A DNA stretch of 23,044 nt, taken from IMG/VR virus record IMGVR_UViG_2740892487_000010; one strand, written 5' to 3'. Below, in pieces: positions 3,634 through 23,044 of this stretch. This DNA comes from a virus (Duplodnaviria > Heunggongvirae > Uroviricota > Caudoviricetes). The position numbers and the translations under genes are program-made. The notes beneath the pieces are model-generated. The model was given only the letters and a program-made list of their open reading frames with translations, was not told where the DNA came from and did no database searches. Position 1 is the first letter of the stretch; each line of letters opens with the position of its first letter.

Positions 3634-3678
3634 AGGGAAAGGTTGCCATCAGGGGAAGAAAGGCGGCAGTGCTGCAAC

Positions 3679-3698: not shown

Positions 3699-3701
3699 AG
3701 A

Positions 3702-5470: not shown

Positions 5471-5471
5471 T

Positions 5472-6180: not shown

Positions 6181-6183
6181 AAT

Positions 6184-6387
6184 TCAGTCCCATAGCTGGA
6201 CGGTCTGCACGGTGGTGGTTGTCGGAATGTCCGGCAGCTCCACCTGCAGCCCGTGAGGTAAAAAGGGGCCATATTCGGCAAGCCCCGGATTTGCCTTCAG
6301 TACCTGCTCCGTGACACCCTGCGTGCGCCCGTAATGACGCCAGCAAAGCGCGTCCACCGTGTCATACTGATGCGCACGCACTTTCAT
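6184..6387 (-). CDS. X: Tail protein X (P2 gpX-like)
   Basis: 67 aa, the same length as P2 gpX; conserved position between L and the holin; ATGA overlap with the L stop. Confidence 0.75.
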   Translation of the reverse strand: MKVRAHQYDTVDALCWRHYGRTQGVTEQVLKANPGLAEYGPFLPHGLQVELPDIPTTTTVQTVQLWD

Positions 6388-6851
6388 CAGATAAGCTCCA
6401 CTGTGCAGTGCGGCGCATCCTGTACCCGGCTGATGGCCCAGCGGGCGTCACGCCACAAATCACCGCTGGCTTCCGCCAGTTCCTCGCCCCGCTTCACACC
6501 AGACGCCGTGGCGTCATAGTCCTGGTAACGTTCGTTGAGCATGGCGCGTGCCCAGCAGTAAACCGCGTTGAAATAGTGCTGAATGCGCTCACTTTTGCCG
6601 TCCAGTTGTTCCGCCGGAACCTCTGCCAGCGAGGCATATCCCAGCATCTGCTGGCGTCTGCGAAACTCATACAGTTCTGCGTTGACCTCCGAAATTGCCG
6701 ACAGCGCAACCTGCTTTAAACGCGGCTGCGTCACCGTGCCGTCAGTGCGCATCACACTGCGAAACTCCGACAGGTCCACATCAGGCCAGAACGGCGTATT
6801 TCTGATGATTTCCGCCTGTTCCGGTGCCTGTTCTGGTGCAACAAACTTCAT
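6387..6851 (-). CDS. L: Head completion/stabilisation protein (P2 gpL-like)
   Basis: Track ORF 6387..6914; likely true start is ATG at about 6851 (MKFVAPEQ...) preceded by GGAGA. Confidence 0.75.
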   Translation of the reverse strand: MKFVAPEQAPEQAEIIRNTPFWPDVDLSEFRSVMRTDGTVTQPRLKQVALSAISEVNAELYEFRRRQQMLGYASLAEVPAEQLDGKSERIQHYFNAVYCWARAMLNERYQDYDATASGVKRGEELAEASGDLWRDARWAISRVQDAPHCTVELI

Positions 6852-6946
6852 GCTGCTTTCTCCTGAAATAGAGGGCGGTGGACGGAGTTTTGATGTGGCT
6901 GTGCCTTTCGCCACCCCGTGCCGCCCGTGCGCGGGGGCACGTTCTG

Positions 6947-7597
6947 TCAGCGGCTGTCATTGCGCAGTCTGCGCTCCAGCTGCTGTTTGTCTTTTTTCAC
7001 GCCACAGCGGGGATCGAGCTGCAACGCATGGTTGAGATGGTTAAGGGCGGAAGCCGGATTGCTTTCACTCAGGACAGCGCCAATCGCTTTATGCAGACGC
7101 GCCCGTGACTGGTCCGGCATATCCAGACCGTCTGTCAGCTCCAGCGTCTGCAGCAACAGATCGGCATCAAAGCCGGTGGCGGCAAGCATTGCGCTCTGCG
7201 CCGCGTCTGCCATTTCCTCTGCCAGCACGGTCTGCACATTGCGATTACCCAGCGGCATCACCCAGCCATGACGCAGGGCGTGACGCCCGATCTCCAGCGC
7301 CCCGGCATAATCTCCGGCATCAATGCGCCACAGCATCACGTACATCAGCACGTCATCCTGTTGAGCGCCTCCGGCAGCAAGGACACCCTCCGCCCAGGCG
7401 GCGTACTTCGGCAGCAGCTCCACCTTGATTTCCGCTTTTTTGACCGTGGACTGAACGCCCTTGAGACGGCGGCGGTCTTCCGCCAGTTGCAGCAGCATCA
7501 GGTCATAGCCCGACGCGTGGCGAACGCTGCCGCCCTCGCGGGCGGCCTGTTCAGCCTGAACGCGCAGGCGATGCTGCCGTGCGGGACTCAGGCTCAT
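6947..7597 (-). CDS. M: Terminase small/endonuclease subunit (P2 gpM-like); possibly truncated by an in-frame TGA (frame stays open to 6848)
   Basis: 216-aa ORF immediately downstream of N; the same frame continues 32 codons past the TGA at 6947-6949 to a second TGA that overlaps the L start codon. Confidence 0.7.
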   Translation of the reverse strand: MSLSPARQHRLRVQAEQAAREGGSVRHASGYDLMLLQLAEDRRRLKGVQSTVKKAEIKVELLPKYAAWAEGVLAAGGAQQDDVLMYVMLWRIDAGDYAGALEIGRHALRHGWVMPLGNRNVQTVLAEEMADAAQSAMLAATGFDADLLLQTLELTDGLDMPDQSRARLHKAIGAVLSESNPASALNHLNHALQLDPRCGVKKDKQQLERRLRNDSR

Positions 7598-7600
7598 GAA

Positions 7601-8659
7601 TTACGCTCCGGTTTCTGCTGCTGCGGCGCTGAAGTCGCCAATCTGGATGTTTTCCACCAGTGCGGCGCAGCGGTAGTCCTCAACCACATAGGCTTCGTTA
7701 ACGGATTCAAAGTTTTCAATCCGGTCACGTTTCGGGTTGTCGATAACTGAGCGGCGGCGGGTGTCTTCCTGCCAGTAGATGGACAGGTTATCCAGACGGG
7801 TGATCAGCAGTGCATTCGGCGGGAAGAACGGCGCACGCACGGCCTGCAGGCCACCCATGCGTTTCTGACTGATGATCATATCGGCAGCCAGTTTTTCACT
7901 GTTTTCCTGCTCTTTGTTGACCAGCGGGAAATACTTGTCAGACAGCAGTTCACGACCGCAAATCACCACCAGATCGTCATCGTCCTGGTAGACCACATCG
8001 ATAAGCTCATTGACGGCATCCATCACCACGGCGTCCAGGTTGGCATATTCGCCACCTTTCCCGACTTTCACCGCACCCGGTGTGGTTTCACCGCCCGTGG
8101 TGGTGCTGCCCATGACGTGATCCGGTGCATCTTCACGGATTTTCTGCAGCCAGCCTTTGTTCACATCCTGCAGCAGCGGGTTTTCGCTACGGCTGGAGGT
8201 TTTCGCACGCTTCACGCCGTTAAAGCCGATCATGATGCGGTCCAGAGCCTGACGTTTCACGATGGCGTCACGGATGCGCACCTGGAAATCCTGAAACTTC
8301 GCCCACAGGTCCAGCTTCGCGTAGGTCAGCACCGTGTCAAAGTTGGTCTGCTCGCATTTATATTCCACATCGACCATCAGCGTCGGATCGACAGGTTCAC
8401 GCTCTTTCGCGGTGGTGTCAGTGGTTCCGGCAATGGTGCTGCCAACTCCCAGCCCCAGCAGCTGACCGGACTGCTCAGTCACTGGCGTGACGTTAATCAG
8501 CGTCAGGAAAGCGGCGGACTGCTGGATCTGGTCTTCCAGCGTCTGCTGCACAGACGGCTCCACGGTGAACTTGCTGGACAGTTCTTCAACTGCCACACCG
8601 TTCAGACGCGCCAGCTGCTGCAGGTAAGCGTTAAAAGCAAAGCGGGTATTCTTCTTCAT
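7601..8659 (-). CDS. N: Major capsid protein (P2 gpN-like)
   Basis: 352 aa; MKKNTRFAFNAYL..., GFNGVKRA, VIISQKR, KLDRIENFESVN and C-terminal GDFS all parallel recalled P2 gpN. Confidence 0.9.
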   Translation of the reverse strand: MKKNTRFAFNAYLQQLARLNGVAVEELSSKFTVEPSVQQTLEDQIQQSAAFLTLINVTPVTEQSGQLLGLGVGSTIAGTTDTTAKEREPVDPTLMVDVEYKCEQTNFDTVLTYAKLDLWAKFQDFQVRIRDAIVKRQALDRIMIGFNGVKRAKTSSRSENPLLQDVNKGWLQKIREDAPDHVMGSTTTGGETTPGAVKVGKGGEYANLDAVVMDAVNELIDVVYQDDDDLVVICGRELLSDKYFPLVNKEQENSEKLAADMIISQKRMGGLQAVRAPFFPPNALLITRLDNLSIYWQEDTRRRSVIDNPKRDRIENFESVNEAYVVEDYRCAALVENIQIGDFSAAAAETGA

Positions 8660-8675
8660 CGGGTTTTGTGCTCCA

Positions 8676-9510
8676 TCAGCAATTGGTCAGAGTGTCAGCG
8701 GGGGCGTTACCGCCTGTTGCACGCTGGCGGTAGTCCTGGCGACTGTCTTCATGACTCAGCTTGTCCACCAGTTCGTTAAAGGCGGTTTGCTGTGCCTGCA
8801 GGGCAGTCTCCAGCTCAGACAGGCGTTCTTCCTGCTCAGACAGGGATTTTTCGGTGCGTGCGCTCAGGTTCTGCTGCTCAGTGGCGACCAGCTCCACGGC
8901 CTTATGCACATCAGAGAACCGGGCGTCATCGGACTGCTCTTTTTTGGTAAACAGCGCCGTGACGCGGGCAAACAGGGACGGTTTGTCGTCCTGGATTTCT
9001 TCCAGTTCGATCACCGTTTCCTCTGCAGCGGTAAAGAGATTGGCAGGATTCTGCTTGCGGTTTGCCAGCGGGTTATGGGCTGCACTGGCGCTGAATGTCA
9101 GCATTTCCGTACCCAGACTGGCAGGGTCATCAGTGGCAGCCAGGCCGACCAGATAGGCTTTGCCCGTATCAGCGAACTTCGGGCTGACTTCCATAGAGGT
9201 GAATAATTTCTGGCCTTTTTTTCACCAGTTCCACCAGGGACTCCGTTGGCTCAACGTCGGCATACAGCGCCATCTTGCCTGCCAGCGGACCTTCCGTGAT
9301 TTCTTCAGCAAACAGCGCCGTCACCTTGCCGTAGCGGTTAAAGGTGCTGTCCGGCAGATAAGACTTGATGTGCTCAAGGTTAATCAGCGCGGTATACACC
9401 GCCGGGTTGTAGCTGGCTGCCATCTGTTCCAGCCATTCACGCTGGATTTCGCGTCCGTCGGTGGTGGCACCTTCCACCCCGATGCGAAAACGCTTTGCTT
9501 TCACTGTCAT
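8676..9510 (-). CDS. O: Capsid scaffolding protein (P2 gpO-like), frame interrupted (track ORFs 9169..9510 and 8676..9194)
   Basis: N-terminal piece has [12 protein letters not shown] and INLEH; C-terminal piece has [23 protein letters not shown] and the terminal [14 protein letters not shown]. Frames switch at a 7-nt A run (minus strand, about 9216-9222); removing one A restores ...[21 protein letters not shown]... Confidence 0.8.
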
Positions 9511-9589
9511 GAGCCGTGCTCCGTTAGAAAAAAACTTACAGGAGCCTTATGGTTGCGGTGATGGGGGCAGTGAAACAATGCGCGGTATT

Positions 9590-9607
9590 TGTACCGACAA
9601 CCACACA
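9590..9607. promoter_or_regulatory. Putative Ogr-type late promoter element (TGT-N12-ACA) in the divergent O/P intergenic region
   Basis: TGTACCGACAACCACACA in the 143-bp gap between divergent O and P; centred about 55 nt upstream of the P start codon. Confidence 0.4.
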
Positions 9608-9653
9608 AACCGCAGGCGGGGAAAGCCTTCATTCAAGGCTGTAGGTTTGTGCC

Positions 9654-11421
9654 ATGAACACCACACTGACACCCGCAGATCTCGATCCCCGTCGGCAGGC
9701 CATGCTGCTGTACTTTCAGGGATACCGCGTAGCCCGCATTGCTGAAATGCTGGGCGAGAAAGTTGCAACCGTTCACAGCTGGAAAAAACGCGACAAGTGG
9801 GGTGACTATGGGCCGCTGGATCAGATGCAGCTCACCACCGCCGCACGCTACTGCCAGCTCATTATGAAGGAGCACAAAGAAGGGAAAGATTTCAAAGAAA
9901 TTGACCTGCTGGCGCGCCAGTCGGAGCGCCACGCGCGGATCGGCAAGTTTAACAATGGCGGCAACGAAGCCGACTTAAACCCTAACGTCGCCAACCGCAA
10001 CAAAGGCCCGCGCCGTCAGCCGGAAAAGAATGTTTTCACCGATGAACAGATAGAGAAACTGGAAGAAATCTTCCATTCCTCCATGTTCAACTACCAGCGC
10101 CACTGGTGGGAAGCCGGAAAAACCAACCGCATCCGCAACCTGCTGAAGTCACGCCAGATCGGCGCGACCTTTTACTTTGCCCGTGAAGCCCTGATTGACG
10201 CCCTGCTTACCGGACGTAACCAGATTTTCCTTTCTGCCAGTAAGGCACAGGCTCACGTCTTTAAGCAGTACATCATCGACTTCGCCAAAGAAGTCGAGGT
10301 GGAGCTGAAAGGCGATCCGATGGTGCTTCCTAACGGGGCCACGCTTTACTTCCTCGGCACCAATGCCCGCACGGCGCAGAGTTACCACGGCAACCTGTAT
10401 CTGGATGAATATTTCTGGATACCGAAATTCCAGGAGTTGCGCAAAGTGGCTTCCGGTATGGCTATTCACAAGAAATGGCGACAAACCTATTTTTCCACGC
10501 CATCCAGCCTGACCCACAGTGCTTATCCGTTCTGGTCCGGTGCGCTGTTCAACCGTGGACGCAACAAAGCTGACAAGGTGGACATCGACCTGTCCCACAG
10601 CAATCTGGCCCCCGGCCTACTGTGCGCAGACGGGCAATACCGCCAGATAGTCACCGTGGAAGATGCGGTGCGCGGCGGCTGTAACCTGTTCGACCTCGAC
10701 CAGCTGCGCATGGAGTACAGCCCGGACGAATACCAGAACCTGCTGATGTGCGAGTTCGTGGACGATCTCGCGTCCGTGTTCCCGCTCAGCGAACTGCAGG
10801 CGTGCATGGTGGACAGCTGGGAAGTCTGGACCGACTTTCATGCACTGGCCCTGCGCCCGTTTGGCTGGCGCGAAGTGTGGATCGGTTATGACCCGGCAAA
10901 AGGTACGCAGAACGGCGACAGTGCCGGATGCGTGGTGGTGGCTCCGCCAGCCGTGCCGGGTGGTAAGTTCCGCATTCTTGAGCGTCACCAGTGGCGCGGG
11001 ATGGACTTCCGCGCCCAGGCTGACGCCATCAAAAAACTGACCGAACAGTATAACGTGACCTATATCGGTATCGACTCGACCGGCGTCGGTCACGGGGTTT
11101 ACGAGAACGTGAAAGCGTTTTTTTCCTGCCGTCAGGGAGTTTGTCTATAACCCCAACGTTAAAAACGCCCTGGTACTCAAGGCCTACGACATTATCAGCC
11201 ACCGCCGTCTGGAGTTTGACGCCGGGCACACCGACATTGCGCAGTCATTTATGGCAATCCGTCGCGCTACCACTGCCAGTGGCAACCGCCCGACCTATGA
11301 AGCCAGCCGCAGCGAAGAAGCCAGCCATGCCGATCTGGCCTGGGCAACAATGCACGCACTGTTTAACGAACCGCTGCAGGGCGAGTCCGCCAATACCAGC
11401 AATATTGTGGAGATTTTTTGA
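9654..11421 (+). CDS. P: Terminase large (ATPase) subunit (P2 gpP-like), frame interrupted near 11118-11124
   Basis: Track ORF 9654..11150 (498 aa) ends prematurely; the conserved C-terminus (VYNPNVKNALVLKAYD...NIVEIF) continues in another frame to TGA at about 11419-11421 overlapping the Q start. A run of 7 T where 6 T would give KAFFPAVREFVYNPN; corrected length about 588 aa. Confidence 0.85.
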
Positions 11422-12460
11422 TGGGAAAGAGTAAGAAGAACCGCGCTGCGTCGACGAAACAGATCCAGCATAAAAGCCAGACTTCAGCCGAAGCATTCAG
11501 CTTCGGTGATCCCGTTCCTGTTCTGGACCGCCGCGAACTGCTGGACTATGTGGAATGCGTACAGATGGATCGTTGGTACGAGCCGCCTGTGAGTTTCGAC
11601 GGACTGGCGCGAACCTTCCGCGCCGCCGTGCATCACAGCTCACCGATTGCAGTGAAGTGCAACATTCTGACCAGCACCTACATCCCTCACCCGCTGCTCA
11701 GCCAGCAGGCTTTTTCGCGTTTTGTACAGGACTATCTGGTTTTTGGTAACGCCTACCTGGAGAAACGCACGAACCGCTTCGGTGAAGTTATCGCCCTTGA
11801 GCCTGCACTGGCAAAATACACCCGACGCGGGTTAGACCTTGATACCTACTGGTTTGTGCAATACGGCATGACTACGCAGCCGTATCAGTTCACGAAAGGC
11901 AACATTTTTTTCATCTGATGGAACCGGACATCAACCAGGAGATCTACGGCCTGCCTGGTTATCTTTCTGCCATTCCGTCAGCTCTGCTCAACGAGTCCGC
12001 CACGCTGTTCCGCCGCAAGTATTACATTAACGGCAGTCATGCAGGCTTCATCATGTACATGACCGATGCAGCGCAGAACCAGGAGGATGTGAACAACCTC
12101 CGCAATGCGATGAAAAGCGCCAAAGGTCCTGGTAACTTCCGTAACCTGTTTATGTACTCGCCTAACGGTAAAAAGGACGGGCTTCAGATTATCCCGTTGT
12201 CAGAAGTGGCGGCGAAGGATGAGTTCCTGAATATCAAGAACGTGAGCCGGGACGACATGATGGCGGCGCATCGTGTGCCGCCACAAATGATGGGGATAAT
12301 GCCTAATAATGTCGGGGGGTTTGGGGATGTGGAGAAGGCCAGCCGTGTATTCGTCCGAAATGAGCTAATGCCACTACAAAAGCGATTACAGGAGATGAAT
12401 GATTGGCTTGGCAAGGAGGCGATACAGTTTAATACCTACTCGCTAGATATAGTCCCATAA
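11421..12460 (+). CDS. Q: Portal protein (P2 gpQ-like), frame interrupted near 11905-11911
   Basis: Track ORFs 11418..11918 and 11918..12460 together about 346 aa; a run of 7 T where 8 T would give ...GNIFFHLMEPDINQEIYGLPGYL...; N-terminal MGKSKKNRAAST... is portal-like. Confidence 0.85.
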
Positions 12461-12463
12461 TAA

Positions 12464-12490
12464 GAAAAGCCACCGTTTGGTGGCTTTTCT
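12464..12490. terminator. Bidirectional rho-independent terminator between convergent Q and the cargo operon
   Basis: AAAAGCCACC-gttt-GGTGGCTTTTCTT: GC-rich hairpin flanked by an A-run and a T-run, directly after the Q stop and before the minus-strand ORF stop at 12495. Confidence 0.7.
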
Positions 12491-12494
12491 TCAT

Positions 12495-13236
12495 TTACTC
12501 AATAGGTTCAAACTCATCCTGAGGAATCAGCGTCGATTGACAGGCTTGGCTTAGTACTCCTGATAATTTACATAATAACCGATAGTTATGAGGAGCATCA
12601 TCGCTAATCTTTTCGACCGTTAAAGTGATTGATTTTGGATCATCCAATAACATCTTCTTGATATCATTACTTAAATACCTAGGGCAGTAACCAACGATTT
12701 CAGCTGGTTTATCTGCACGAACGACAACAGCATCCCCATCGTATTCATTTTGAAGATCCAAGCAAAGACGCAAAATTTGCCCCGGTTTCAATTCAGATAC
12801 ACGAGCATTAGCTAAGCTATTTAAGTAACCAAGTCCATGTAAGAAGAAAAAATGCTCAAAGTTACCATCAGAATCAACATCAATTTTTTTTGAAAATCTG
12901 CAGCTGATCAGTGCTTCGTAAGCCTCCCGAGCGAGCAAGAATATCGATAGGATTTACCTTATCTTCTTCAAATCCAAGCCATTTAATGAAACTCGGATAC
13001 TCTGGACGTCTCGGTGATAAAAGGCGATTTTTAAAAAGAGGAAACAATTCTTCCGAAACATAAGTTTCACGAACATCACTCATGCCGCTAAACTTTGTAA
13101 ATTTAGTAGATTTAAGAGCACCTTTGGTATACCTGAAAACATACCCCGATTTGCGCTCTTGCAAGTTACCAACAACATGCCAGTCTCTGGTATCTGGTGC
13201 CTGCCATGCGACGTAAACGGAGTTTGTATTAGTCAT
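12495..13236 (-). CDS. HipA N-terminal-subdomain-like (HipS-like) domain joined to a C-terminal HIRAN-like domain; frame interrupted at an A/T homopolymer (track ORFs 12880..13236 and 12495..12938)
   Basis: N-part VGNLQERKSGYVFRYTKGAL...ELFPLFKNRLLSPRR...DILARSGG parallels the HipA N-terminus (VGELTKLANGAHTFKYAPEWL...AVFNFFDNLLPDSP...DLLSEIGRDSVG). C-part LRLCLDLQNEYDGDAVVV...EIVGYCPRYLSNDIKKML resembles the HIRAN signature. ATG at about 13234-13236 overlaps the kinase stop (ATGA). The distal ORF lacks an ATG (TTG only) and the frames switch at an 8-nt homopolymer near 12884-12891. Confidence 0.6.
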
Positions 13237-14147
13237 TCTAGTAACCTTCTGCGATTTTCCATTACCATTAACGTTGCAAATCTACGTGCACTGTCGGATA
13301 TACACGATGAAGGCACTTGGTTAAACACATCTGTAATGGAATCTTCTGTTAAAACGCTCAACTTACCTAACCAATGGTCGCGAGCGGCAACTCTCCCTTC
13401 AACTGCATGTTGAAATGCTTCAACGGTCAGCAAGGGCTTTTTATCAGTTTTTGCTTTGAATAGCTCAGAGCGAGCTTTTCTTACAAAACATGGGATTTGT
13501 CGATTTTTATCTTTAGTATTAAGCCGTTCGTTACGCTCATCATCTAACATCTCCCTTCCTAAACTAGCGGCATGATCGTATGTTGGACACAAAAACTGCT
13601 CACCAGTTTCATTGTTAAGCATGATCGCCCAATTTTCATGATGGCGATCTTGATTACTCACAAGTGCATCGAGCATCAAAAATCCACAAAATACATCTGC
13701 TGCATTTAGCCCGGTTAGATCATATACACTCGGAGGAGGCTTGATAGATTCCCTATCTAAACAACCCAATACCCTTGTGACAGTGTGTTCTCTGACCCTT
13801 ACCGGCTTTTCCCCGGCTTGTAAAGGCCCTGGATAATCGAATGTCGAACTGTGAAGCACTTCATTTCCCATTACCATCCGGAAACCAGATGGAATGATAT
13901 TCTGAGTCACCACACCGAATCGACCATTGTATCGCGCCAAATCATAGCTAGCATGTGGAATGTTAAGCAAATGACATAACTCAGCAGCACACTTTTCAGA
14001 CCAATGCTCGCCAGTACCTGGCCTAGAGTACTTAAACAACTGCAAATTTACAGTGTCATCGGAGAAATAGAACCAAAACTTCTCTTTGGTTCCTAACTGT
14101 TCAAGATCGTTAGCTACGGGGCTAAGCTCTACCAATTGGTATGGCAT
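13233..14147 (-). CDS. HipA-family Ser/Thr protein kinase core (HipT-like, lacks the N-terminal subdomain)
   Basis: 304 aa; Gly-rich loop LGTKEKFWF (compare HipA VAGAQEKTAL), catalytic motif LVSNQDRHHENWAIM (compare HipA GATDGHAKNFSV), metal-binding motif LCPTYDHAAS (compare HipA TPFYDIIS); ATG with AGGGA ribosome-binding site. Confidence 0.7.
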   Translation of the reverse strand: MPYQLVELSPVANDLEQLGTKEKFWFYFSDDTVNLQLFKYSRPGTGEHWSEKCAAELCHLLNIPHASYDLARYNGRFGVVTQNIIPSGFRMVMGNEVLHSSTFDYPGPLQAGEKPVRVREHTVTRVLGCLDRESIKPPPSVYDLTGLNAADVFCGFLMLDALVSNQDRHHENWAIMLNNETGEQFLCPTYDHAASLGREMLDDERNERLNTKDKNRQIPCFVRKARSELFKAKTDKKPLLTVEAFQHAVEGRVAARDHWLGKLSVLTEDSITDVFNQVPSSCISDSARRFATLMVMENRRRLLE

Positions 14148-14299
14148 CTGACATCCCTGTTTAGCGGATTATGAATAAGTTAGGTTCCATTTTATCCAAA
14201 CATTGTCAAATACTCTAAGATTTATTAGATGATAGAGCGATACTGTATGCATGTCCAGCAATCAAATCAATATATAACTCTTATATGACTTAGCGCGCG

Positions 14300-14322
14300 C
14301 TCGTATCCCCGCCACGCCTGCC
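14300..14322. other. Putative cos (cohesive end / terminase recognition) site
   Basis: Minus-strand GGCGTGGCGGGGA... matches the first 13 nt of the 19-nt cohesive end as I recall it for 186/P2 (GGCG(T/A)GGCGGGGAAAGCA.); the 3' part diverges; lies between the tum-like gene and the portal gene as in 186. Confidence 0.4.
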
Positions 14323-14363
14323 CGCTTTATGTAGTGGTTTTCATGCAGGTGCATGATCTACGC

Positions 14364-14387
14364 AAAAGCCCGCCAGTTCTGGCGGGC
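14364..14387 (-). terminator. Hairpin with T-run on the minus strand (possible terminator insulating cos and the cargo operon from leftward read-through)
   Basis: GCCCGCCA-gttc-TGGCGGGC stem-loop preceded on the plus strand by AAAA, i.e. followed by TTTT on the minus strand. Confidence 0.35.
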
Positions 14388-14660
14388 CTTAGCGAAAACG
14401 ATCCTCAAACGATCATGCAATCTCATGCAGCATAGACATGCACAGACGAGTAAAGCGAATCGGACCTTACGCAAGGTGAACTCCTCAGCGGGCATAATCA
14501 GTATGTCGGAAGATCTCTAAAAATAAATAATTCGGTTAACAGGTATGCTTACAAAAGCATATATTTGATTAAAAATCATGTAAGGGGGAGGATCTCAAAC
14601 TGAATCGCCACGGGTTTTACAAATTTCGATAGTCTCTCTAACGTTTCGGCTGAGGTCAAA

Positions 14661-15086
14661 ATGAAAAGCTTTTACGTATTAATTTTAATTCTGGTTGCAA
14701 GCTTTGTTAGCGTCCCAGTTCAGGCGGTAACAGCTAAAAACTATGAGAAAGGAACTAAAGCTCAACAGAAATCAATATCTTACCTTTCATGTGCATTCTA
14801 TGGCAGTAGCACACAATTAGATCCTAGCTACACGGAGCAAGTACCTACAGCCGATATCAAGATATTACAGAAAGCAGCTTACCACGCTTACAACGATGCG
14901 CTCTCATACTTTGGCTATGAGGAACCAGATCACGAACAACGCATAATTGATTATGCTGAATTTGTGGCGTCGCAAGAAGCTGTGTTATGGGATAAGCCGG
15001 GAATGAATGGAAAGCAGGTAACACTAATTGCTCGTTCTCTCTACAATGAGAGTAACTGTAACTTGTTACTGGACTCAATTAAGTAG
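14661..15086 (+). CDS. Secreted/periplasmic protein of unknown function (cargo gene)
   Basis: 141 aa; N-terminal signal peptide MKSFYVLILILVASFVSVPVQA; AT-rich codon usage unlike the phage core; GAGG ribosome-binding site; possible promoter TTTACA-17-TAACGT at about 14616-14644. Confidence 0.55.
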   Translation: MKSFYVLILILVASFVSVPVQAVTAKNYEKGTKAQQKSISYLSCAFYGSSTQLDPSYTEQVPTADIKILQKAAYHAYNDALSYFGYEEPDHEQRIIDYAEFVASQEAVLWDKPGMNGKQVTLIARSLYNESNCNLLLDSIK

Positions 15087-15245
15087 GAAAAAGATGGTAT
15101 TTTGCCCGTAGTTTCAACCTTAATCTCCGAACCTGTCGCAGAACGGGCGTTCACTCATCAAATAAACGCCACACCTAACGCCTCACTGTACTCGTTGTTC
15201 AACCTTGCTGACGCCAGAACCAAGTTCAGACGCCAGCAACTTTTC

Positions 15246-15479
15246 TTAATGCAGCCAGCTGTCGTCTTCCCACACCTTCTGCATAATCTTCATCACTTGT
15301 TTTCTTTCTTCGTCCAGTTGCAGTCCGGTCAGTTCCACACCGTTAGAGCTACCTTTGCGGATGCGAATTACCATTTTGGGATACAGGGGGCGCAGATTGC
15401 GGTAAAGCTCGGATTCAAGGGCGTCCAGGGTAGACTGGCTAATCTTCTGCTCTTTATCGATCATTATTTCAATGCGCAT
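15246..15479 (-). CDS. DinI-family protein, likely SOS-inducible antirepressor (phage 186 Tum-like)
   Basis: Track ORF 15246..15551; DinI-like core starts at ATG about 15479 (MRIEIMIDKEQ...LDALESEL...WEDDSWL) with AGGTGA ribosome-binding site; LexA box upstream; same position as tum in 186. N-terminal extent uncertain. Confidence 0.6.
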   Translation of the reverse strand: MRIEIMIDKEQKISQSTLDALESELYRNLRPLYPKMVIRIRKGSSNGVELTGLQLDEERKQVMKIMQKVWEDDSWLH

Positions 15480-15719
15480 AAAGGTCACCTCAGCTGATGA
15501 CATCCATTGAGCGGTTGTATTCGTGGGTTCTGATTTTTGCCATGAGTTCATCAGTCAATTCAGAAACCCACTGCAGAGCCAGCCCCTTCTCTTCATCACT
15601 ACACTCACTAGCCGCTACAAGCTTAAGAAAAAAAATCAATGCGCTGGAGCTTCAAAGACTCCAAAAAATAGTCCTGCATCTTTCCTCCTATGACACCAAA
15701 GCAATACTGTATATATAAC

Positions 15720-15739
15720 CACTGTTTATATTTACAGTA
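15720..15739. promoter_or_regulatory. LexA operator (SOS box)
   Basis: cACTGTTTATATTTACAGTa fits CTGT-N8-ACAG with an AT-rich spacer; adjacent partial half-site TACTGTATATATAACC; between the end of A and the DinI-like gene. Confidence 0.65.
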
Positions 15740-15831
15740 TATAATAATCTTACTGATGTAAAACGTTTTTTTACGTTCATCAGCCTGAAATGCCTGGTAT
15801 TATTAAGAGCACGAATTGTTAACCCGCGTAA

Positions 15832-18247
15832 TTAATACAGGTTTCGCCACTTATCATCTTCCTGCAAACGCTGGTTCCGATAGAAGATACGCAGGCCTGC
15901 TCCTGACGGAATACTGCCGCCGCGAAGCAGTAAATCGACCTCTTTCTCGCTGCCATCAAATCCCCTGGACTTCAGTTCATACACGAGCTGCTGTCGCTGA
16001 TGATCTGTAATTCGCTGTTTGTAGTCTTTACGCCGTTTCGGTTTCACCAGGCGTAACCTTGCTGCCAGTTCCCGGCGCTCTTTTTTGCTCATACTGTGCA
16101 GGTAATCGTGCAACTCCTTGTCATCCATGCGGGTGATATCCGTTCTGGTATCTCCATCAGCTGATTTGTCTTTCCCTTGTTGGTACAAATTTTCAGCAAG
16201 GGGACAGTTATTGCCACGAGTCCAAGGGGCGCAAGCGCCCTGGTCGGCTGCCGCCTCCTGAACGTCAACGGCCTTACGAACCATTTTCCACTTCACTGCA
16301 TGAGTGCAGATCTTGCCCTCTGCAATGGGTGACCAGATGCCATAAATACGAATACCGTGATCGCCATAGGCGGTTGGCTCTTCGTTTATTTCATAAGCGG
16401 TTCTGATGAGGTGATATTTGCGGGGAACCAGTACGCCGCCCTGCTTCATGATGTAAGTGGCAAAACAACCAGCATCAGCAGCAGCCAGGATGGCATCAAG
16501 GCGCGGGTTATCCAGTACCGGCGCACCTGCTTTTTTGTCACCCTGTTGCCTTGCCGCCTGACCAGCCAGCAATCGCAGTTCACGGTAAGCCTGACGCCCC
16601 GGAATGCCAAAGAAGCGGAATTGCTGAACACGATGCAGAGACGCCCAGGCATTAACGTATTCAGCGTTATCACGCAGGGATTTACCCGTTTCCTTACTGA
16701 TCTCGCCAGCCAGACCACGCCCGTCAATATTCTTACTGATATATTTCGCAATGTAGCTTGTCGGCGTTCCTTTGCGCGGGTTTATCAGCTCAGACTTAAA
16801 GCGTGGCCCCGTGTTATTGCCCAGCTCCTCGCGGTCTTCACGGATGGCAAACTTACGCAACAATGCAGTAATGGCGCGGCGGTCTTTTTTTGCGCATGAA
16901 ACACAACAGGTGCCAGTGAACTGTGCCGTCATGATGCGGCTCAGCCACCCGCACGCCATACCAGCGCAACCCGGCTTTGTGCATAGCCTTACGAAATGCA
17001 GCAAACATGCCGACCAGATAATCGCTGCTTTGTCTTACTGTCGCGTTGGTCCAGGTCGGGTTTGGCCTGCCGTTATTTAGCGTGGAATGGAAACGTGACG
17101 GACAGGTGATGGTGTAGAAAACGGCGCAGTCACCACGCATTTCCGCGATAAGCTCCAGACCTTTAACACAGGCCATCATCTCGTTGCGGCGATGCGCCGG
17201 GTTGCTGCTGCTGGCGTTTACCACATCCTCCATGTCCAGCGTGTCGCCGTCTTCGTTCACCAGTTCATGAGAACGGAAAAACTCCAGCGACTTACGGCGC
17301 TGCTCACGTTTATGCATCACGGCTTCATAGCTGACATAGGGAGATGCTTTTTTGCTGACCAAGCAGACAGCACGCAACTGCTCTTCCCGCCATTCGCAAC
17401 GCATCTTCCATAATTTCCGATACCACCAGTCGGCACACAACATACGCGCCAGCGAACCCGGAATGAGTTCATAGGGCACGGGTTTACGGCGGTTTCTTTT
17501 CCGACGGAGTTGCTCAAACGCAGGCGGAATAACATCCAGACGCAGGGTTTCCGCTGCCACCTTTTCCCATGTTTTGCGGATTTCTTCTGGCTTAACGTCA
17601 TCGGTGGCATACAAATCACCACAAGCGGCATCAAGGCACATGCTCATATGCGCAGCGACAAGGGTAGACAGGCGCTTCACCTGATCCTGACTCATTTCAG
17701 GCAGGATAAGCAGGCCGTCCAGCCCTTCATGGCTTGCCATAAAACGAAAAGATGCAGATAGCTGGCTGTCGCGTACATGCTCCAGTCGTTCCAGACATGG
17801 CTTAATTGTCTCACGTAAATAGCGGGAATAAGCCTTTGGCCTGCACAGGCTGCTGAAGTATTCAATACGTTGCATCAGCGGCTTGCTGATATGGGAAGGC
17901 TGGGCGTTGACGTCCGCCAGAATGACCATATCCGGATTAAAACGCTGCTGCTCATGCGCCAGCTTTGCCCGGCTAATGAGCTTATCCTGCTCCATTTCGC
18001 GCTGGACAGGATCACGTGATTCATTAAAAAAATAACGCTCCCAGACCTGATCACTCAGTGCCTCGCGGCGCAGTTGTTCCTGCTCGTTATCGGCAGCGTA
18101 CAGAGTGATCAGGTTTGAAAGCGCAGAAACCGGCGCAACTTCCGCCGGGTCCAGATAAGGGTTAATGGCCTTTTTCGGGCTGTTCCATGAGAACGCTGCG
18201 GCAGCCTCGTTAAAGCCGCAGCAGTTGTTCATATCGGCATGACTCAT
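15832..18247 (-). CDS. A: Replication initiation protein (P2 gpA-like rolling-circle endonuclease), frame interrupted near 16885-16891
   Basis: Track ORFs 16853..18247 (464 aa) and 15832..17004 (390 aa) overlap; HUH-like GTVHWHLL motif; a 7-nt homopolymer where 6 would give ...[22 protein letters not shown]...; ATGA overlap with the dam stop. Confidence 0.8.
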
Positions 18248-19101
18248 GCACGTACTCCGTACACGGCTGAACTATCCACGCCACGCGAAGGATCAAATCC
18301 CACCCAGCAGCGCGGCCCGGAAACAGCGATGATTTCTGTTGCAGATTTACTCTCACCAGCTGCCACACCGATGCTGCGTTTTGCCTTGATGTAGTGGTGA
18401 GTAAAATTGCGATACAGCGAACGGATCAGGGATGTGTCACTGTTAGAAACAATGACCGGATATCCTTCTGATGATCGATGTTCAAGAACGGATGCCAGGT
18501 GATACTGGTCATCTTCAGTGAAACCATCAGTGTGATAGCCGGAAAACGTACCGTCATACGGCGGATCGCAATACACCACATCCCCCACCTGCAGCATCGC
18601 CAGCGTTTCATCAAAGCTGGCGCAGATAAACGTTGCCCGCTGGGCTTTCTCTGCAAATGCGCGAATTTCTTTTTCAGGGAAATACGGATTTTTATAATTA
18701 CCGTACGGAATGTTGAAATGCCCGCTCTTGTTATAGCGACATAACCCACGGTAACCATGACGATTGAGATACAGGAAATATATCGCTTTCATGAAATCAG
18801 TAATTTCAGTGGAGTAATTAAACTCCTGCCTTATGTTGTAATAAGCCACATCCCTGTTTGCTTCCTCAAATAAAGCTCTGGCACGAGATATAAACGCCTC
18901 GCAATCAGCAGCAACCTTTTTATAGAGGTTGATTAAATCAGGATTAATATCCGCAACAAGATAGCTGGGGTAATCCGTCTCCATCATCACAGCACAGGAA
19001 CCCGCGAAAGGTTCAACCAGTCGCGGGCCAGCAGGAAGATGTTTTTTCAGTTCGGACATAATGGCGGTTTTATTTCCCGCCCATTTCAGGATGGTGCTCA
19101 T
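18244..19101 (-). CDS. dam: DNA adenine (N6) methyltransferase, Dam-like
   Basis: Track ORF 18244..19161; likely start [11 protein letters not shown] at about 19101; catalytic DPPY motif ([10 protein letters not shown]); AdoMet-binding EPFAGS-type N-terminus. Confidence 0.85.
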
Positions 19102-19325
19102 ACAGCACCTCCGTTGTAATGTTTGCCTTTCAGCTCTGCGATTTCCTGACAGGTAATGCAAAGCTGCACACCCGGAATGGCACGGCGGCGTGCTGGCGGA
19201 ATTGGCGCTTCACACTCAATGCAAAGCACGCGGGACACGCCCGGCGTTTTGGCACGGGCAGCACGGATATGGCGTTGGCGTTCTTCTTCAACGCGCTGCT
19301 GTACGAGATCCATTGCATCAGCCAT
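19098..19325 (-). CDS. TraR/DksA-family C4 zinc-finger protein
   Basis: 75 aa with CIECEAP...CITCQ (CxxC-N17-CxxC); common small gene in P2-like early operons. Confidence 0.7.
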   Translation of the reverse strand: MADAMDLVQQRVEEERQRHIRAARAKTPGVSRVLCIECEAPIPPARRRAIPGVQLCITCQEIAELKGKHYNGGAV

Positions 19326-19564
19326 TAGTGGATCTCCTGCGCTTCGTTCTGGATTGCTTCAGCAGTCACACGAAGCAGTTCTGCCGCTTCGACGTGGGTT
19401 AGCTGGCGGGATGTGATATGACACGCCAGGCTATCAAGGCGAGCTGCCATTGCTTCAGCCCTTGCCCGGCGTTCTTCCAGACGAGCCTCTGTCAGTAAAA
19501 TATTAAGCCCTGCGTCATCCGGTCCGGTTTTGGTCGAGAGGGTTTCAATATTACGCATAATCAA
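19325..19564 (-). CDS. Hypothetical early-operon protein
   Basis: 79-aa ORF overlapping the TraR-like start by one codon; no recognisable motif. Confidence 0.4.
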   Translation of the reverse strand: MIMRNIETLSTKTGPDDAGLNILLTEARLEERRARAEAMAARLDSLACHITSRQLTHVEAAELLRVTAEAIQNEAQEIH

Positions 19565-19625
19565 TTCTCCTGAATTTAGATAAAGGGATGCCCGGCGGGT
19601 TTACGCCATTAATTTCATTAGTTGG

Positions 19626-19967
19626 TTAATTCGGCATGGTTAGCCGTCTGGGAAATAAGCTCACCACTGCACGAAAATGATTCATTGCTTTAATCAACTC
19701 CCGCTTTTCGTCAGTGGTCAGCTCATTAATGCTGATGCTATGACGTTCAGCTGGAATTTTTGCCATAAAGAATATGGCAGCCAGTGCCCGTTTATTTTGT
19801 TCGCTATTAATATCCCGTGAATCACGCATATCTTTAATAAACCGCTCAAGCTCTGACTCAATATTCAGGCCAAAAACTTTCGCCCTTAACTCCGCAATGT
19901 GATTAAGTCCATTCAGGCGTTCACCGGGGCTTAATGGAACAGTCGCCGCAGTGCCTTCAATAGCCAT
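19626..19967 (-). CDS. Hypothetical early-operon protein
   Basis: 113-aa ORF in operon context; no recognisable motif. Confidence 0.4.
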   Translation of the reverse strand: MAIEGTAATVPLSPGERLNGLNHIAELRAKVFGLNIESELERFIKDMRDSRDINSEQNKRALAAIFFMAKIPAERHSISINELTTDEKRELIKAMNHFRAVVSLFPRRLTMPN

Positions 19968-20161
19968 TTGTTCCCCCGTTTTTTCGTAGATAGTTCTGCC
20001 AGCAATTCATCTTGTGAACGGCACGGATGCCAGCGTTTACCATCCTCCCCCATGATCCAGCCGTGACCGTAATGCATTGCCGGGCTTTGTTTAACCAGCA
20101 GCGATGCAAATGATGGTTCTTTCGTCAGCATAAGCACCTCACAGCAAACCAAATGAAGCAC
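19931..20161 (-). CDS. Hypothetical small early protein (position of 186 fil)
   Basis: 76-aa track ORF; true start probably the internal Met (MLTKEPSF...) at about 20131, since the upstream part overlaps cII. Confidence 0.35.
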   Translation of the reverse strand: MLHLVCCEVLMLTKEPSFASLLVKQSPAMHYGHGWIMGEDGKRWHPCRSQDELLAELSTKKRGNKWLLKALRRLFH

Positions 20162-20654
20162 CGAGGCCAGTCACGGTATCAACTGCACTCGCCATCGCAG
20201 GATTAGCCTGTAAACGGGCCTGCAATGAAACAGCCGCCAGCGCCATCAGTCGTGTTACAGAGTTAATGCTGCTGATAGCATCACGACGACCGGCACAGGT
20301 TTTTACATCGCCAGACACCGCACCTGCAGCAACACGCCCGATCTCTGCGGTTGCACTCATGACGTAATGTGGCAGTTTCTCTTTTGCCACCTCATTAATC
20401 GGTACACATGGCAGACAATGAATCTGTGCCAGAAAACCATCTACCAGCGTTGAATCTTCAGTCAGATCGGTAAGCAGCCAGATTTCTGGTGCGGTTAATA
20501 AATGAGGCTGAGCTGGGTTCAGCTTGTTCCGCAGAATCTGCACATTCATGCCTGCACGTTCTGCCAGTTGCACCAGATTGTGGCGCAGTGCAAATGCACG
20601 ACAGGCTTCATCAAAATGTGGATGTTTGGAAACTTGGTAATCAAACATGGTCAA
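20139..20654 (-). CDS. cII: CII-like transcriptional activator (phage 186 CII family)
   Basis: 171 aa; [20 protein letters not shown]...LRNKLNP...[25 protein letters not shown]...NPAM...GASFGL closely parallels the 186 CII sequence as recalled. Confidence 0.65.
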
Positions 20655-20680
20655 TGCCTCTGATGTATTTCAGAATCGAA

Positions 20681-20902
20681 CTAATTAAGGTTTAGATTGC
20701 ATTCTGAAAGCGCATCAACGGTCATTGCTGCTATGTTGATCATCACTTTTTCGCGTTTTTTATCTTTGCGCAGACGGTGACGGATAAGGCGTCCATCAGC
20801 CAACATGTCATTGATGGTATCGATGGATAGCCCTGTCAGCTCGCTATAGCGTTCAATAGTCACATGAGGCGTGGTAAGAGTGATTGAAATGTTAGGTCTC
20901 AT
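20681..20902 (-). CDS. apl: Apl/Cox-like small DNA-binding protein (excisionase and lytic-promoter regulator)
   Basis: 73 aa, first gene of the leftward early operon, divergent from cI; HTH-like [21 protein letters not shown]. Confidence 0.55.
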
Positions 20903-21027
20903 GATGCAACATTCCTCGTTTAATGATGATTAATCAGGACGAATACGGATCGTTTGTATTTTGTGAACACCATAAACATACGATCGCACGGTGAAATCGT
21001 CAAGATAAAAGTTCACTTGGAGTGACC
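20903..21027. promoter_or_regulatory. Divergent pR/pL switch region with candidate operators
   Basis: 125-bp AT-rich gap between divergent apl-like and cI; perfect palindrome TGATTAATCA at about 20926-20935 and inverted repeats GATCGTTTGTAT / ATACGATCG. Confidence 0.4.
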
Positions 21028-21597
21028 ATGAATTTGGAGAAAGGCGGACGAGGCGCCATAGAGCGCATGGTAGAAGCTTATGGATTCAAGACTCGACAGG
21101 CGTTGTGCGATCATTTAGGAATCTCTAAAAGTACACTCGCCACACGCTACATGCGTGACTCATTCCCAGCAGAATGGGTAATCCAGTGCGCCCTTGAAAC
21201 AGGCACCTCGCTTAATTGGCTCACAACCGGGCATGGTTCAAAGCAAACTTCAGGTAATACAAATACTATGGAAGTTGCTAAATATGTATTATCTGATGGG
21301 GCCTTGTGTGAAGACGGTTTTTATATTTTCGATAGAGAATTTCTACCGTCGGCATTCAAGAATCTTTTTGTAATCACAGATAATAATTCTGAATTTATTT
21401 GTGATAAGGAATTTGATGATATACGTGATGGTAAATGGGTAATAAGTATTGATGGCGAAATAACGATCCGTGACATTACTCGTTTACCCGGTGGAAGAAT
21501 CTTCGTCGAGGGTGGAAACAGAGCCTTTGAATGTAAGATAGAAGACATTGAAATAATTGGTAAAATTATAAGTTTAACAGTCAAGTATGTTAAATAG
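21028..21597 (+). CDS. cI: Immunity repressor, phage 186 CI-type
   Basis: Track ORF from GTG 21022; likely ATG at 21028 with GGAG ribosome-binding site; AYGFKTRQALCDHLGISKSTLATRYMR...CALETGTSLNWLTTGHG matches the 186 CI N-terminal domain pattern. Confidence 0.75.
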   Translation: MNLEKGGRGAIERMVEAYGFKTRQALCDHLGISKSTLATRYMRDSFPAEWVIQCALETGTSLNWLTTGHGSKQTSGNTNTMEVAKYVLSDGALCEDGFYIFDREFLPSAFKNLFVITDNNSEFICDKEFDDIRDGKWVISIDGEITIRDITRLPGGRIFVEGGNRAFECKIEDIEIIGKIISLTVKYVK

Positions 21598-21612
21598 TAC
21601 CGGGAGAAAATT

Positions 21613-21804
21613 ATGCTTGGTAAGGTATTTTTTGTGGTTTTGTCATGTTCTTTGTTATTAAACCCACTAGCTACCTATGCTAGAAATTATCCCTGCTCAG
21701 GGAAAAAGGGAGGTGTTTCTCACTGTACCTCTGATGGCAAATTCGTTTGCAATGATGGAACTATTAGTAAATCCAAAAAAATCTGTACTAAAAACTCACG
21801 ATAA
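21613..21804 (+). CDS. Small secreted cysteine-rich protein (candidate moron/lysogenic-conversion gene)
   Basis: 63 aa; signal peptide [23 protein letters not shown]; mature peptide of about 40 aa with 5 Cys; GGGAGA ribosome-binding site; sits between cI and int. Confidence 0.5.
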
Positions 21805-21992
21805 CTTTTGCTTTTATATCTGCGCCTAAAATAAAAATGAGCCACAGGTTAACCGCAAAAGTTACATGATCACATAGCAAAAAGAATAGCCTACTTCATT
21901 ATGGCTTCAGTGAGATGTATGGTCGCAGGATTTCATACATTGACACTGGTTATACATACAGTAAAAATGCTCTCTATTGGAGGGCATTTTTT

Positions 21993-23044
21993 ATGGCTGT
22001 ACGAAAACTCACCACAGGAAAATGGCTTTGCGAATGTTACCCCGCCGGACGTAGTGGGCGTCGTGTGCGTAAACAATTCGCCACCAAAGGCGAAGCACTG
22101 GCTTTTGAGCGTCACACGATGGAAGAAACCGAAGCAAAGCCCTGGCTAGGTGAATCAGTGGATCGTCGAACACTGAAAGACGTGGTTGAGCTATGGTTCA
22201 AACTACATGGTAAATCACTGACTGCTGGGCAGCATGTCTATGACAAATTGCTGCTGATGGTTGACGCTCTGGGCAATCCCCTTGCAACTGATCTAACCTC
22301 TAAAATGTTTGCCCACTATCGAGATAAACGCCTGACAGGTGAGATCTACTTCAGCGAGAAATGGAAGAAAGGAGCAAGCCCGGTCACCATTAACCTGGAG
22401 CAAAGCTATCTAAGTAGTGTTTTTAGCGAACTATCCCGCCTGGGCGAATGGTCGTATCCGAACCCACTGGAGAACATGCGAAAATTCACCATCGCAGAAA
22501 AAGAGATGGCATGGCTTACCCATGAGCAGATTGTTGAATTACTGGCTGATTGCAAACGTCAGGACCCAATTCTGGCACTGGTAGTTAAGATATGCTTAAG
22601 CACAGGCGCACGCTGGCGAGAAGCCGTAAATCTTACTCGTTCACAGGTGACCAAATACCGAATTACCTTTGTAAGAACGAAGGGGAAGAAAAACAGAAGC
22701 ATCCCTATCAGTAAAGAGCTTTACGAAGAGATCATGGCGCTTGATGGGTTCAATTTCTTCACAGACTGCTATTTTCAATTTTTATCCGTGATGGAAAAAC
22801 GTCTATCGTGCTCCCTCGCGGTCAACTCACACACGTTCTGCGCCATACGTTTGCGGCGCACTTCATGATGTCGGGTGGAAACATTCTGGCCTTACAAAAA
22901 ATTCTCGGACACCACGATATAAAAATGACTATGCGTTACGCACATCTGGCACCGGATCATCTGGAAACGGCGCTCCGTTTCAATCCTCTGGCAACGCTGC
23001 CAAGTGGCGACAAAGTGGCGGCAGCGGTTGGCATTACCCCGTAA
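21993..23044 (+). CDS. int: Tyrosine integrase (P2/186 Int family), frame interrupted near 22780-22800
   Basis: Track ORF 21915..22868 with likely start MAVRKLTTGKW at 21993 (GGAGGG ribosome-binding site), plus ORF 22808..23044 carrying LPRGQLTHVLRHTFAAHFMMSGGNILALQKILGHHDIKMTMRYAHLAP (catalytic R, H-x-x-R, Y). Adding one A to the A5 run at about 22795-22799 gives ...MEKTSIVLPRGQ... Stop is at the window end. Confidence 0.85.

Follow-up and report, generated by a model that had tools for sequence, protein, structure and literature searches.

The eight discordant A/T runs of this P2-like prophage are, judging from sequence comparisons, very probably errors of homopolymer length made in sequencing or assembly, and not marks of prophage decay. 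The stretch of DNA analysed, 23,044 nucleotides long and referred to below as the window, carries lesions that are all (8/8) changes in the length of an A/T run, six adding one base, one adding two (in Q) and one removing one (in int), and each of seven genes is left in two frames, namely O, P, Q, A, int, a HIRAN cargo gene and a 62-aa ORF. We infer the technical cause for this assembly, rather than seeing it directly, from alleles private to the window, from proteins restored exactly upon correction, from selection that has not relaxed and from recurrence in error-laden assemblies; on these grounds we side with the first-pass annotation, which preferred systematic sequencing or assembly indels to decay.

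The prophage and its discordant runs

Gene content and order point to a P2-like (Peduoviridae) Escherichia coli prophage of the rcdA/ybjJ-site type that is ordinary and probably intact. The P2 order is present with high protein identity (H-I-J-W-V ... S-R-lys-X-L-M-N-O / P-Q / cargo / A ... B-cII-cox / CI-int), the stop codon of int forms the 3' limit of the window, and host DNA is absent from it. No match above about 98% identity to the window over long stretches was found in PLSDB or among the complete E. coli genomes. The intact P2-like prophage at rcdA/ybjJ in E. coli 21AR0133 (NZ_CM132251.1) has the same order from tail fibre to int and the same HipA-like/HIRAN cargo, at a nucleotide identity of 97-98%, and its P and int proteins are identical to those of the corrected window. 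It differs in possessing a DUF2971 gene between V and S, which the window lacks, in carrying another small cargo segment at the place of window positions 14442-15175, and in the orientation of the invertible tail-fibre segment, which is flipped relative to the window. The features concerned, including the intact partner of the HIRAN gene, are as follows.

8676..9510, minus strand: O, capsid scaffold; T7 at 9216-9222, T6 in relatives; two frames by tblastn
9528..9534, no strand assigned: A run in the O 5' leader / O-P divergent region; A7, A6 in relatives
9654..11421, plus strand: P, terminase ATPase subunit; T7 at 11118-11124, T6 in relatives; two frames by tblastn
11421..12460, plus strand: Q, portal; T7 at 11905-11911, T5 or an interrupted run in relatives; two bases too many
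12495..13236, minus strand: HIRAN-domain cargo gene (PADLOC PDC-M03B); T8 at 12884-12891, T7 in relatives
13233..14147, minus strand: HipA-like kinase partner gene (PADLOC PDC-M03A); intact, 304/304 aligned, 99.7% identity
15490..15679, minus strand: conserved 62-aa ORF; A8 at 15628-15635, A7 in relatives
15832..18247, minus strand: A, replication endonuclease; T7 at 16885-16891, T6 in relatives
21993..23044, plus strand: int, integrase; A5 at 22795-22799, A6 in relatives; the sole run that is too short

Six of these breaks (in O, P, Q, the HIRAN gene, A and int) lie where the first-pass annotation had placed them, that in int now being pinned to a single A5 run. It had counted six or more breaks, all at A/T homopolymers; all do fall in A/T runs, and the number rises to eight with the addition of 15628-15635 and 9528-9534. 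Its proposal that a single-base change restores each gene holds for most of them but not for Q, where one added base would also mend the frame (at the price of an extra codon), whereas the relatives' state is two bases shorter. The supposed balance of indels in both directions is absent, seven runs being too long and only that of int too short. Nor would all cargo genes be kept if the run lengths were real, since the HIRAN cargo gene is broken as well.

The true lengths are most likely, from 5' to 3', T6, A6, T6, T5, T7, A7, T6 and A6, and with these lengths, which are those of relatives, all seven genes would be full length, their proteins being free of gaps. Corrected O (277 aa), the HIRAN protein (246 aa) and the 62-aa protein each have exact matches on at least 1000 contigs, and corrected Q (345 aa) on 193 contigs. 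Compared with the proteins of the nearest complete genome (L003), corrected P and int are identical over 588/588 and 350/350 residues, and corrected A (804 aa) aligns without gaps at 98.4% identity. Of the relatives found via the V protein, which is very common (8,162 blocks) and hence not diagnostic, 10/10 have O at 277 aa and P at 588 aa, both intact.

Distribution of the window run lengths

The comparison with closely related assemblies that had been suggested as a check was informative: relatives carry other run lengths and encode single-frame proteins. Among the related IMG/VR loci (the panel), the window length occurs in 0 of 16-156 loci at seven runs and in 1/127 at the eighth. The individual counts are 0/101 for T7 in O, 0/110 for the intergenic A7, 0/155 for T7 in P, 0/156 for T7 in Q (and 0/618 genomes), 0/16 for T8 in the HIRAN gene (and 0/21 genomes), 0/114 for T7 in A and 0/127 for A5 in int (and 0/1102 complete genomes); A8 in the 62-aa ORF is found in 1/127 panel loci (IMG/VR locus L110) and in 0/1101 genomes. 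The inactivating alleles at O, P, Q, the HIRAN gene and A were thus common to none of the 16-156 relatives, contrary to what inherited lesions would show. Seven runs were checked in 5,426 complete E. coli genomes, with a single genome, an error-laden record, sharing a window length; the window alleles at P, Q, the HIRAN gene, the 62-aa ORF and int occur in none of the complete E. coli genomes, and the A7 at 9528-9534 is common only to the error-laden NZ_CP019246.1. Scans with exact patterns gave the same picture: the P T7 allele (as an exact 31-mer) had 0 matches in IMG/VR, GTDB representative genomes and JGI metagenomes, the T6 pattern having at least 120; the window allele had 0 matches and the corrected pattern 14 for the HIRAN gene; the A5 allele of int had 0 matches and its corrected pattern at least 120; and the window allele of A had 0 matches. 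The truncated products of P, Q, the HIRAN gene and A found no match in a collection of 15 billion proteins, and that of P was missing from the gene-position index as well. Two loci are very close to the window, namely L074 (3 mismatches and 4 indel events across 8.9 kb) and L200 (1 mismatch and 1 indel across 3.1 kb), amounting together to 4 substitutions and 5 indel events; their differences from the window are nearly confined to these runs.

All indels relative to L003 are run-length changes except one at 15699, which is not in a homopolymer and represents a natural polymorphism common to 24/126 relatives, and no private indels were seen in the window outside the eight listed runs. Runs of at least 5 nt depart from their modal length at 8/86 positions in the window versus 15/6,348 observations in 267 related loci (Fisher p = 3e-10), with a maximum of two deviant runs per panel locus. 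Within the window, the deviating fraction of A/T runs is 1/48 at 5 nt, 5/23 at 6 nt and 2/4 at 7 nt. The clustering of the breaks in 8676-23044, which had been put forward as a signal, is in itself not significant: the probability of no break in 1-8675 is 0.40, because few long A/T runs occur there (three of 6 nt and nine of 5 nt). An apparent specificity for A/T over G/C runs (8/75 versus 0/11) was likewise rejected (p = 0.59).

Homopolymer-length errors are described as the commonest residual error of bacterial assemblies built from long reads only (PMC8812927). The window shares with error-prone assemblies (PMC8812927, PMC12007338) indels confined to mononucleotide runs and commoner in longer ones, alleles private to the assembly, and correction that gives known proteins exactly. 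Such miscalls would arise in sequencing or consensus building, and their odds would grow with run length, so that the position of runs of 5-7 nt, and not gene function, would decide where breaks appear.

Some public records demonstrate errors of this kind at the very same sites. The spurious "plasmid" records pCombat13F7-1, p13P477T-2 and p13P477T-6 (NZ_CP019246.1, NZ_CP019275.1 and NZ_CP019279.1) contain a P2-like prophage, as the window does, with frameshifts in the genes O, Q, A, Dam, int and CI. Core genes are frameshifted too in the host DNA that these records include, so the error there is proven, whereas the window is without host DNA; and at only 96-97% identity to the window the records are not its source. 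Both the O T7 and the intergenic A7 are present in NZ_CP019246.1, where rlmC, artJ and artM are frameshifted, and the run in gene A is one base longer in NZ_CP019275.1, where recN and ppnK are frameshifted. Between two records of the same prophage, both from a single strain, there are 32 indels but not one mismatch across 14.7 kb. The O T7 was further seen in the heavily fragmented GCA_018263635.1 and in two unrelated Logan contigs, and the int A5 in seven Logan contigs, with all those comparable across the flanks (6/6) carrying additional homopolymer deletions. The window differs from the error records compared in that its errors are insertion-biased, include one +2 and are confined to A/T runs of at least 5 nt, whereas those records have errors in shorter runs or are deletion-biased; in the records L269 and L270, whose errors are proven, indels affect runs of all four bases at lengths from 2 to 9 nt, so the platform behind the window probably differs from theirs. 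The change from T5 to T7 at Q counts against an artefact, a +2 being unusual for a consensus miscall.

Technical error weighed against real run-length change

Were the prophage genuinely defective, it would have undergone eight recent, real slippage mutations after selection had gone, possibly in a mismatch-repair-deficient host, with scaffold, terminase, portal, replication and integrase knocked out. Real slippage is concentrated in long mononucleotide runs, its rate being exponential in run length (PMC8510543), so the run-length dependence described above does not by itself discriminate; moreover, an intergenic T7 at 15766 is naturally polymorphic among relatives (T6/T7/T8), and natural run-length variation thus exists in this phage group. 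We nevertheless consider such decay very improbable. Private to the window against the whole panel are 6 substitutions and 8 run-length events, a ratio far over that of about 0.18 recorded in mismatch-repair-defective E. coli (5,324 indels per 30,061 substitutions; PMC8510543), and the probability of at least 8 indels among 14 events under the latter is 3e-4. Relative to L003, 89 synonymous and 14 non-synonymous codon differences lie upstream of the breaks, and 75 and 13 lie downstream; selection therefore acted on the downstream frames right up to the tip of the lineage. In truly cryptic prophages, deletions and insertions are seen along with substitutions that have built up. At face value the window is, like defective or cryptic P2-like prophages of E. 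coli, without working morphogenesis, replication and integration genes, but its lesions are run-length changes alone, set in an otherwise pristine and selectively constrained background; deletions, IS elements and nonsense codons are absent. It further speaks against decay that insertions account for seven of the eight changes, that no allele, with the possible exception of that in int, is shared by descent with close relatives, and that identical sites are altered in demonstrably erroneous assemblies. The run lengths would also be real if an insertion-biased burst of +1 slippage had swept the A/T runs of the whole prophage within a very short time. This strikes us as highly unlikely; it would call for a source, for instance a passing defect of mismatch repair or of a polymerase, and would have hit one defence gene too, and residual expression might then be provided by transcriptional slippage on the runs of 7-8 nt.

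The case of int is somewhat different, as its change is the sole deletion of the eight events, and most runs could be artefacts while the step from A6 to A5 in int is a real, inherited deletion locking the prophage in. The A5 occurs in two contigs that were sequenced independently, L284 (3 mismatches and 0 gaps over 2,687 nt) and L286 (1 mismatch), whereas L200, equally close to the window, has A6. In L284, however, the core gene mdfA is frameshifted by a private deletion of one base that occurs in 0/5,232 complete E. coli genomes, and L286 carries two more deletions, both from T6 to T5; the idea that the seemingly clean L284 establishes the int A5 as real was dropped as unproven given the mdfA frameshift. 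The A5 also turns up in four diverged backgrounds, and other homopolymer deletions accompany it in three of them (L285, L287/L288 and L290), a pattern indicating a recurrent miscall, and the complete genomes and panel loci are uniformly without it. A mixture of this sort is thus unlikely in our assessment. Least plausible, to the point of deserving hardly any weight, is that the shifted frames are functional through programmed ribosomal frameshifting, transcriptional slippage or phase-variable switches on the A/T runs. Runs of 7-8 A/T can allow some slippage of polymerase or ribosome, and, were the indels real, full-length protein might still be made at a low level. However, a programmed arrangement would be conserved, whereas it is present in 0 of more than 100 relatives at any of the seven genes, all of them encoding single-frame proteins, and seven unrelated genes would each need a shift, these differing among them (-1, -2, +1); by its lack of conservation a programmed or phase-variable arrangement is effectively refuted. 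Homopolymer-length error accordingly remains the reading that we prefer. The A5 of int is common to the near-identical L284 and L286 and could be inherited, and this counts against an artefact at int.

Consequences for annotation

The chief value of these observations lies in quality control; the discordant runs are very probably not a biological feature. Taken at face value, the window would enter annotation as defective and its seven split genes as pseudogenes, which would skew counts of intact prophages and of pseudogenes, and also of defence systems because the HIRAN partner of PDC-M03 would be scored as broken. Had the indels been real, the prophage would be locked in and non-inducible; the evidence points against this. 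Across public assemblies, the T6 in O, the T6 in A and the A6 in int are recurrent miscall sites of P2-like phages, and a list of such sites helps in the curation of pseudogene calls in prophages.

Reading-frame breaks in the prophage

The window is a P2-like (Peduoviridae) prophage of the kind that sits beside rcdA/ybjJ in E. coli; searched by megablast, the 5,426 complete genomes of this species include 1,376 with a related element. The best match was NZ_CM132251.1 (97.6% identity at 95% coverage), which contains the closest complete-genome prophage, that of E. coli 21AR0133 (L003); P2-like phages of Klebsiella and Escherichia likewise match the window.

Gene order along the window
Tail fibre H, I, J, W, V, S, R, lysis genes, X, L, M and N, in that order: minus strand
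O, after N: minus strand
P and Q, after O: plus strand
Cargo island, 12.0-16.0 kb: low GC (~42-45%), with the HIRAN gene and a HipA-like kinase gene
DinI-like gene, 62-aa ORF, A, dam, traR-like, B, fil, cII and cox-like genes: after the cargo island
CI, ydcA-like gene and int, last: plus strand

When translated proteins of the annotated relative were compared with the window by tblastn, genes within 1-8659 gave one full-length match each; O, P, Q, HIRAN, the 62-aa ORF, A and int gave two each, in different frames and abutting at an A/T run. Base-level alignment to L003 revealed nine indels across ~18.5 kb, listed below. Both approaches bear out the six break sites named in the first-pass annotation (all of those listed except the 62-aa ORF and the intergenic sites), although two further discordant runs, at 9528-9534 and 15628-15635, had escaped it. 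It had also described indels in both directions, which do occur but are mostly insertions and not balanced.

Indels in the window relative to L003, with the protein restored and its identity to the relative
9216-9222, O: +1 T (T6 to T7); 277 aa, 99.3%
9528-9534, O/P intergenic: +1 A (A6 to A7)
11118-11124, P: +1 T (T6 to T7); 588 aa, 100%
11905-11911, Q: +2 T (T5 to T7); 345 aa, 97.7%
12884-12891, HIRAN: +1 T (T7 to T8); 246 aa, 99.2%
15628-15635, 62-aa ORF: +1 A (A7 to A8); 62 aa, 96.8%
15699, intergenic, not in a homopolymer: -1
16885-16891, A: +1 T (T6 to T7); 804 aa, 98.4%
22795-22799, int: -1 A (A6 to A5); 350 aa, 100%

Resetting the eight runs to the lengths seen in relatives made all seven proteins full-length and gapless, as had been proposed, save that Q differs by two bases and not by one. 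The corrected O, HIRAN and 62-aa proteins each match, exactly and end to end, a protein present on at least 1000 contigs, and corrected Q one on 193 contigs; the N-terminal fragments that the breaks leave of P (498 aa), Q, HIRAN and A were absent from ~15 billion proteins.

Run lengths among relatives and in faulty records

We compared each window homopolymer of at least 5 nt with its modal length in a panel of 267 related loci gathered by pattern scans of IMG/VR. The window departs from the mode at eight of 86 runs, comprising one of 48 A/T runs of 5 nt, five of 23 of 6 nt and two of four of 7 nt, with none among 11 G/C runs. The panel does so in 15 of 6,348 observations, at most twice in any locus (Fisher p = 3e-10), nine of these falling at a single polymorphic intergenic T7 (15766). 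That run (15766-15772, between gene A and the 62-aa ORF; T6 in three relatives, T7 in 106, T8 in six) is the sole homopolymer whose length evidently does vary in this phage group. Since region 1-8675 holds just three A/T 6-mers and nine 5-mers, with a 0.40 chance of zero breaks, their lack there is uninformative, and their clustering in 8676-23044, noted earlier, carries no significance of its own.

The comparison with close relatives for which the first-pass annotation had asked indicates that the window run lengths are private or nearly so. The window allele was found in none of the panel loci covering O (0/101), intergenic 9528 (0/110), Q (0/156), HIRAN (0/16) and A (0/114), and in one of 127 for the 62-aa ORF. 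For P (0/155) and int (0/127) the loci had largely been retrieved using the corrected allele as pattern, so the independent evidence at these two sites comes from exact-pattern scans: the P allele had no match in IMG/VR, GTDB representative genomes or JGI metagenomes, and the A, int and HIRAN alleles had none in IMG/VR. In the complete E. coli genomes that matched at each site, the alleles of P (0/637), Q (0/618), HIRAN (0/21), the 62-aa ORF (0/1,101) and int (0/1,102) were all missing, that of O occurred in NZ_CP019246.1 alone, and a gene A run with an extra base in NZ_CP019275.1 alone. The 15699 indel, common to 24 of 126 panel loci, is thus a natural polymorphism.

The few public sequences with a window allele are faulty themselves. 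NZ_CP019246.1 ("plasmid" pCombat13F7-1), a chromosomal fragment with both O T7 and 9528 A7, is frameshifted in rlmC, artJ, artM and a lipoprotein gene, and also in dam, A, Q, O and R. NZ_CP019275.1 (p13P477T-2), with the extra base in gene A, has recN and ppnK frameshifted; its prophage occurs again in NZ_CP019279.1 from the same strain, and the copies differ by 32 indels and no mismatches over 14.7 kb, which assembly error alone can explain. GCA_018263635.1, an assembly in which nearly all phage genes are fragmented, shares the truncated O product, as do two short Logan contigs whose lineages have diverged (16 and 23 mismatches per 1.3 kb). The truncated int product is found in seven Logan contigs that come from different sequencing runs and backgrounds, and the six comparable across the flanks each have further one-base homopolymer deletions. 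Even the cleanest, L284 (ERR14117359), has a private one-base deletion (5872-5891, T4 to T3) towards the 3' end of the host's mdfA, a frameshift that lengthens the called product to 478 aa and is shared by none of the 5,232 complete E. coli genomes that match there; this otherwise clean-looking contig therefore contains errors. Given that the window alleles recur in faulty records, these A/T runs are recurrent miscall sites in error-prone data.

None of these three RefSeq/PLSDB entries, labelled as a "complete plasmid" of Hong Kong E. coli, is a plasmid, and all are full of indels: NZ_CP019246.1 and NZ_CP019275.1 combine a P2-like prophage with neighbouring chromosome (potFGHI, artPIQMJ, ssrA, smpB, recN), and NZ_CP019279.1 is prophage DNA alone. 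Eight Logan/ENA contigs carry the 172-aa C-terminal O fragment (window ~9194-9216); seven begin ~2-22 nt from its first codon, short of the T-run, as if assembly graphs commonly broke at this homopolymer, and the eighth (L294) spans it, with O broken into pieces of 114 and 172 aa.

Origin of the breaks

The evidence supports the view that the breaks are not a biological feature, and their cause is very probably homopolymer-length error, which would have arisen in sequencing or consensus building. Genuine recent decay, in a mutator host or otherwise, is very unlikely. Two panel loci are nearly identical to the window: one (IMGVR_UViG_3300014614_000024) differs over 3982-12879 by three mismatches and four indel events, the other (L200) over 19956-23044 by one mismatch and one indel. 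Compared with all panel loci, the window carries only six private substitutions in 22.9 kb and eight run-length events likewise private or almost so, an indel share that speaks against decay: mismatch-repair-defective E. coli mutation-accumulation lines gave 30,061 substitutions and 5,324 small indels (PMC8510543), and at least eight indels among 14 events have a probability of 3e-4 at that ratio and 2e-5 at a 10% indel share. Lesions of any other type are lacking, and the alleles, that of int possibly excepted, have no shared ancestry. Nor is selection relaxed: upstream of the breaks, 89 synonymous and 14 non-synonymous codon differences separate the window from the 97%-identical relative, downstream the counts are 75 and 13, and the frames past the breaks have therefore been under equal purifying selection. 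The earlier preference for sequencing or assembly indels over decay thus agrees with indel ratio, single lesion type, selection and unshared alleles alike.

A mixed reading would make int A5 a real, inherited mutation. It draws on the presence of this allele in two Logan contigs nearly identical to the window (L284 and L286), but each contig holds other homopolymer deletions and we consider the reading improbable. Programmed frameshifting or phase variation would call for a conserved arrangement, and is effectively ruled out because there is no such conservation. Under the favoured explanation of homopolymer-length error, the window profile (A/T runs of at least 5 nt, insertion bias) is nevertheless unlike both error profiles inspected: indels between NZ_CP019275.1 and NZ_CP019279.1 affect 2-9-nt runs of all bases, and the int-A5 Logan contigs are deletion-biased. 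The two-base gain in Q is unusual under any model.

Cargo and variable segments

Window 12495-14147 (minus strand), at the P2 hotspot after Q, matches the two-gene candidate defence system PADLOC PDC-M03, with the HipA-like kinase as gene A (304 aa, E = 1e-121) and the HIRAN-domain protein as gene B (246 aa after correction, E = 7e-93); in Pfam the kinase scores weakly as HipA_C (20.6 bits, under the 30.5-bit cut-off). A second variable cargo slot is the V/S position, where L003 has a DUF2971 gene (7387-8421) missing from the window (3633-3775) and other relatives a TIR-domain gene or a 429-aa ORF. Window 1-164 matches L003 2201-2038, within its invertible tail-fibre segment, in opposite orientation, and the window thus begins within the recombinase-flipped region in the other phase. 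A low-GC segment (14148-15250) is missing from L003, the alignment stopping at 14442 and resuming at 15175. It includes a 141-aa ORF (14661-15086, plus strand) with a hydrophobic N-terminus and no match in Pfam or PADLOC, and an exact 40-mer taken from the segment is present in 23 IMG/VR contigs.
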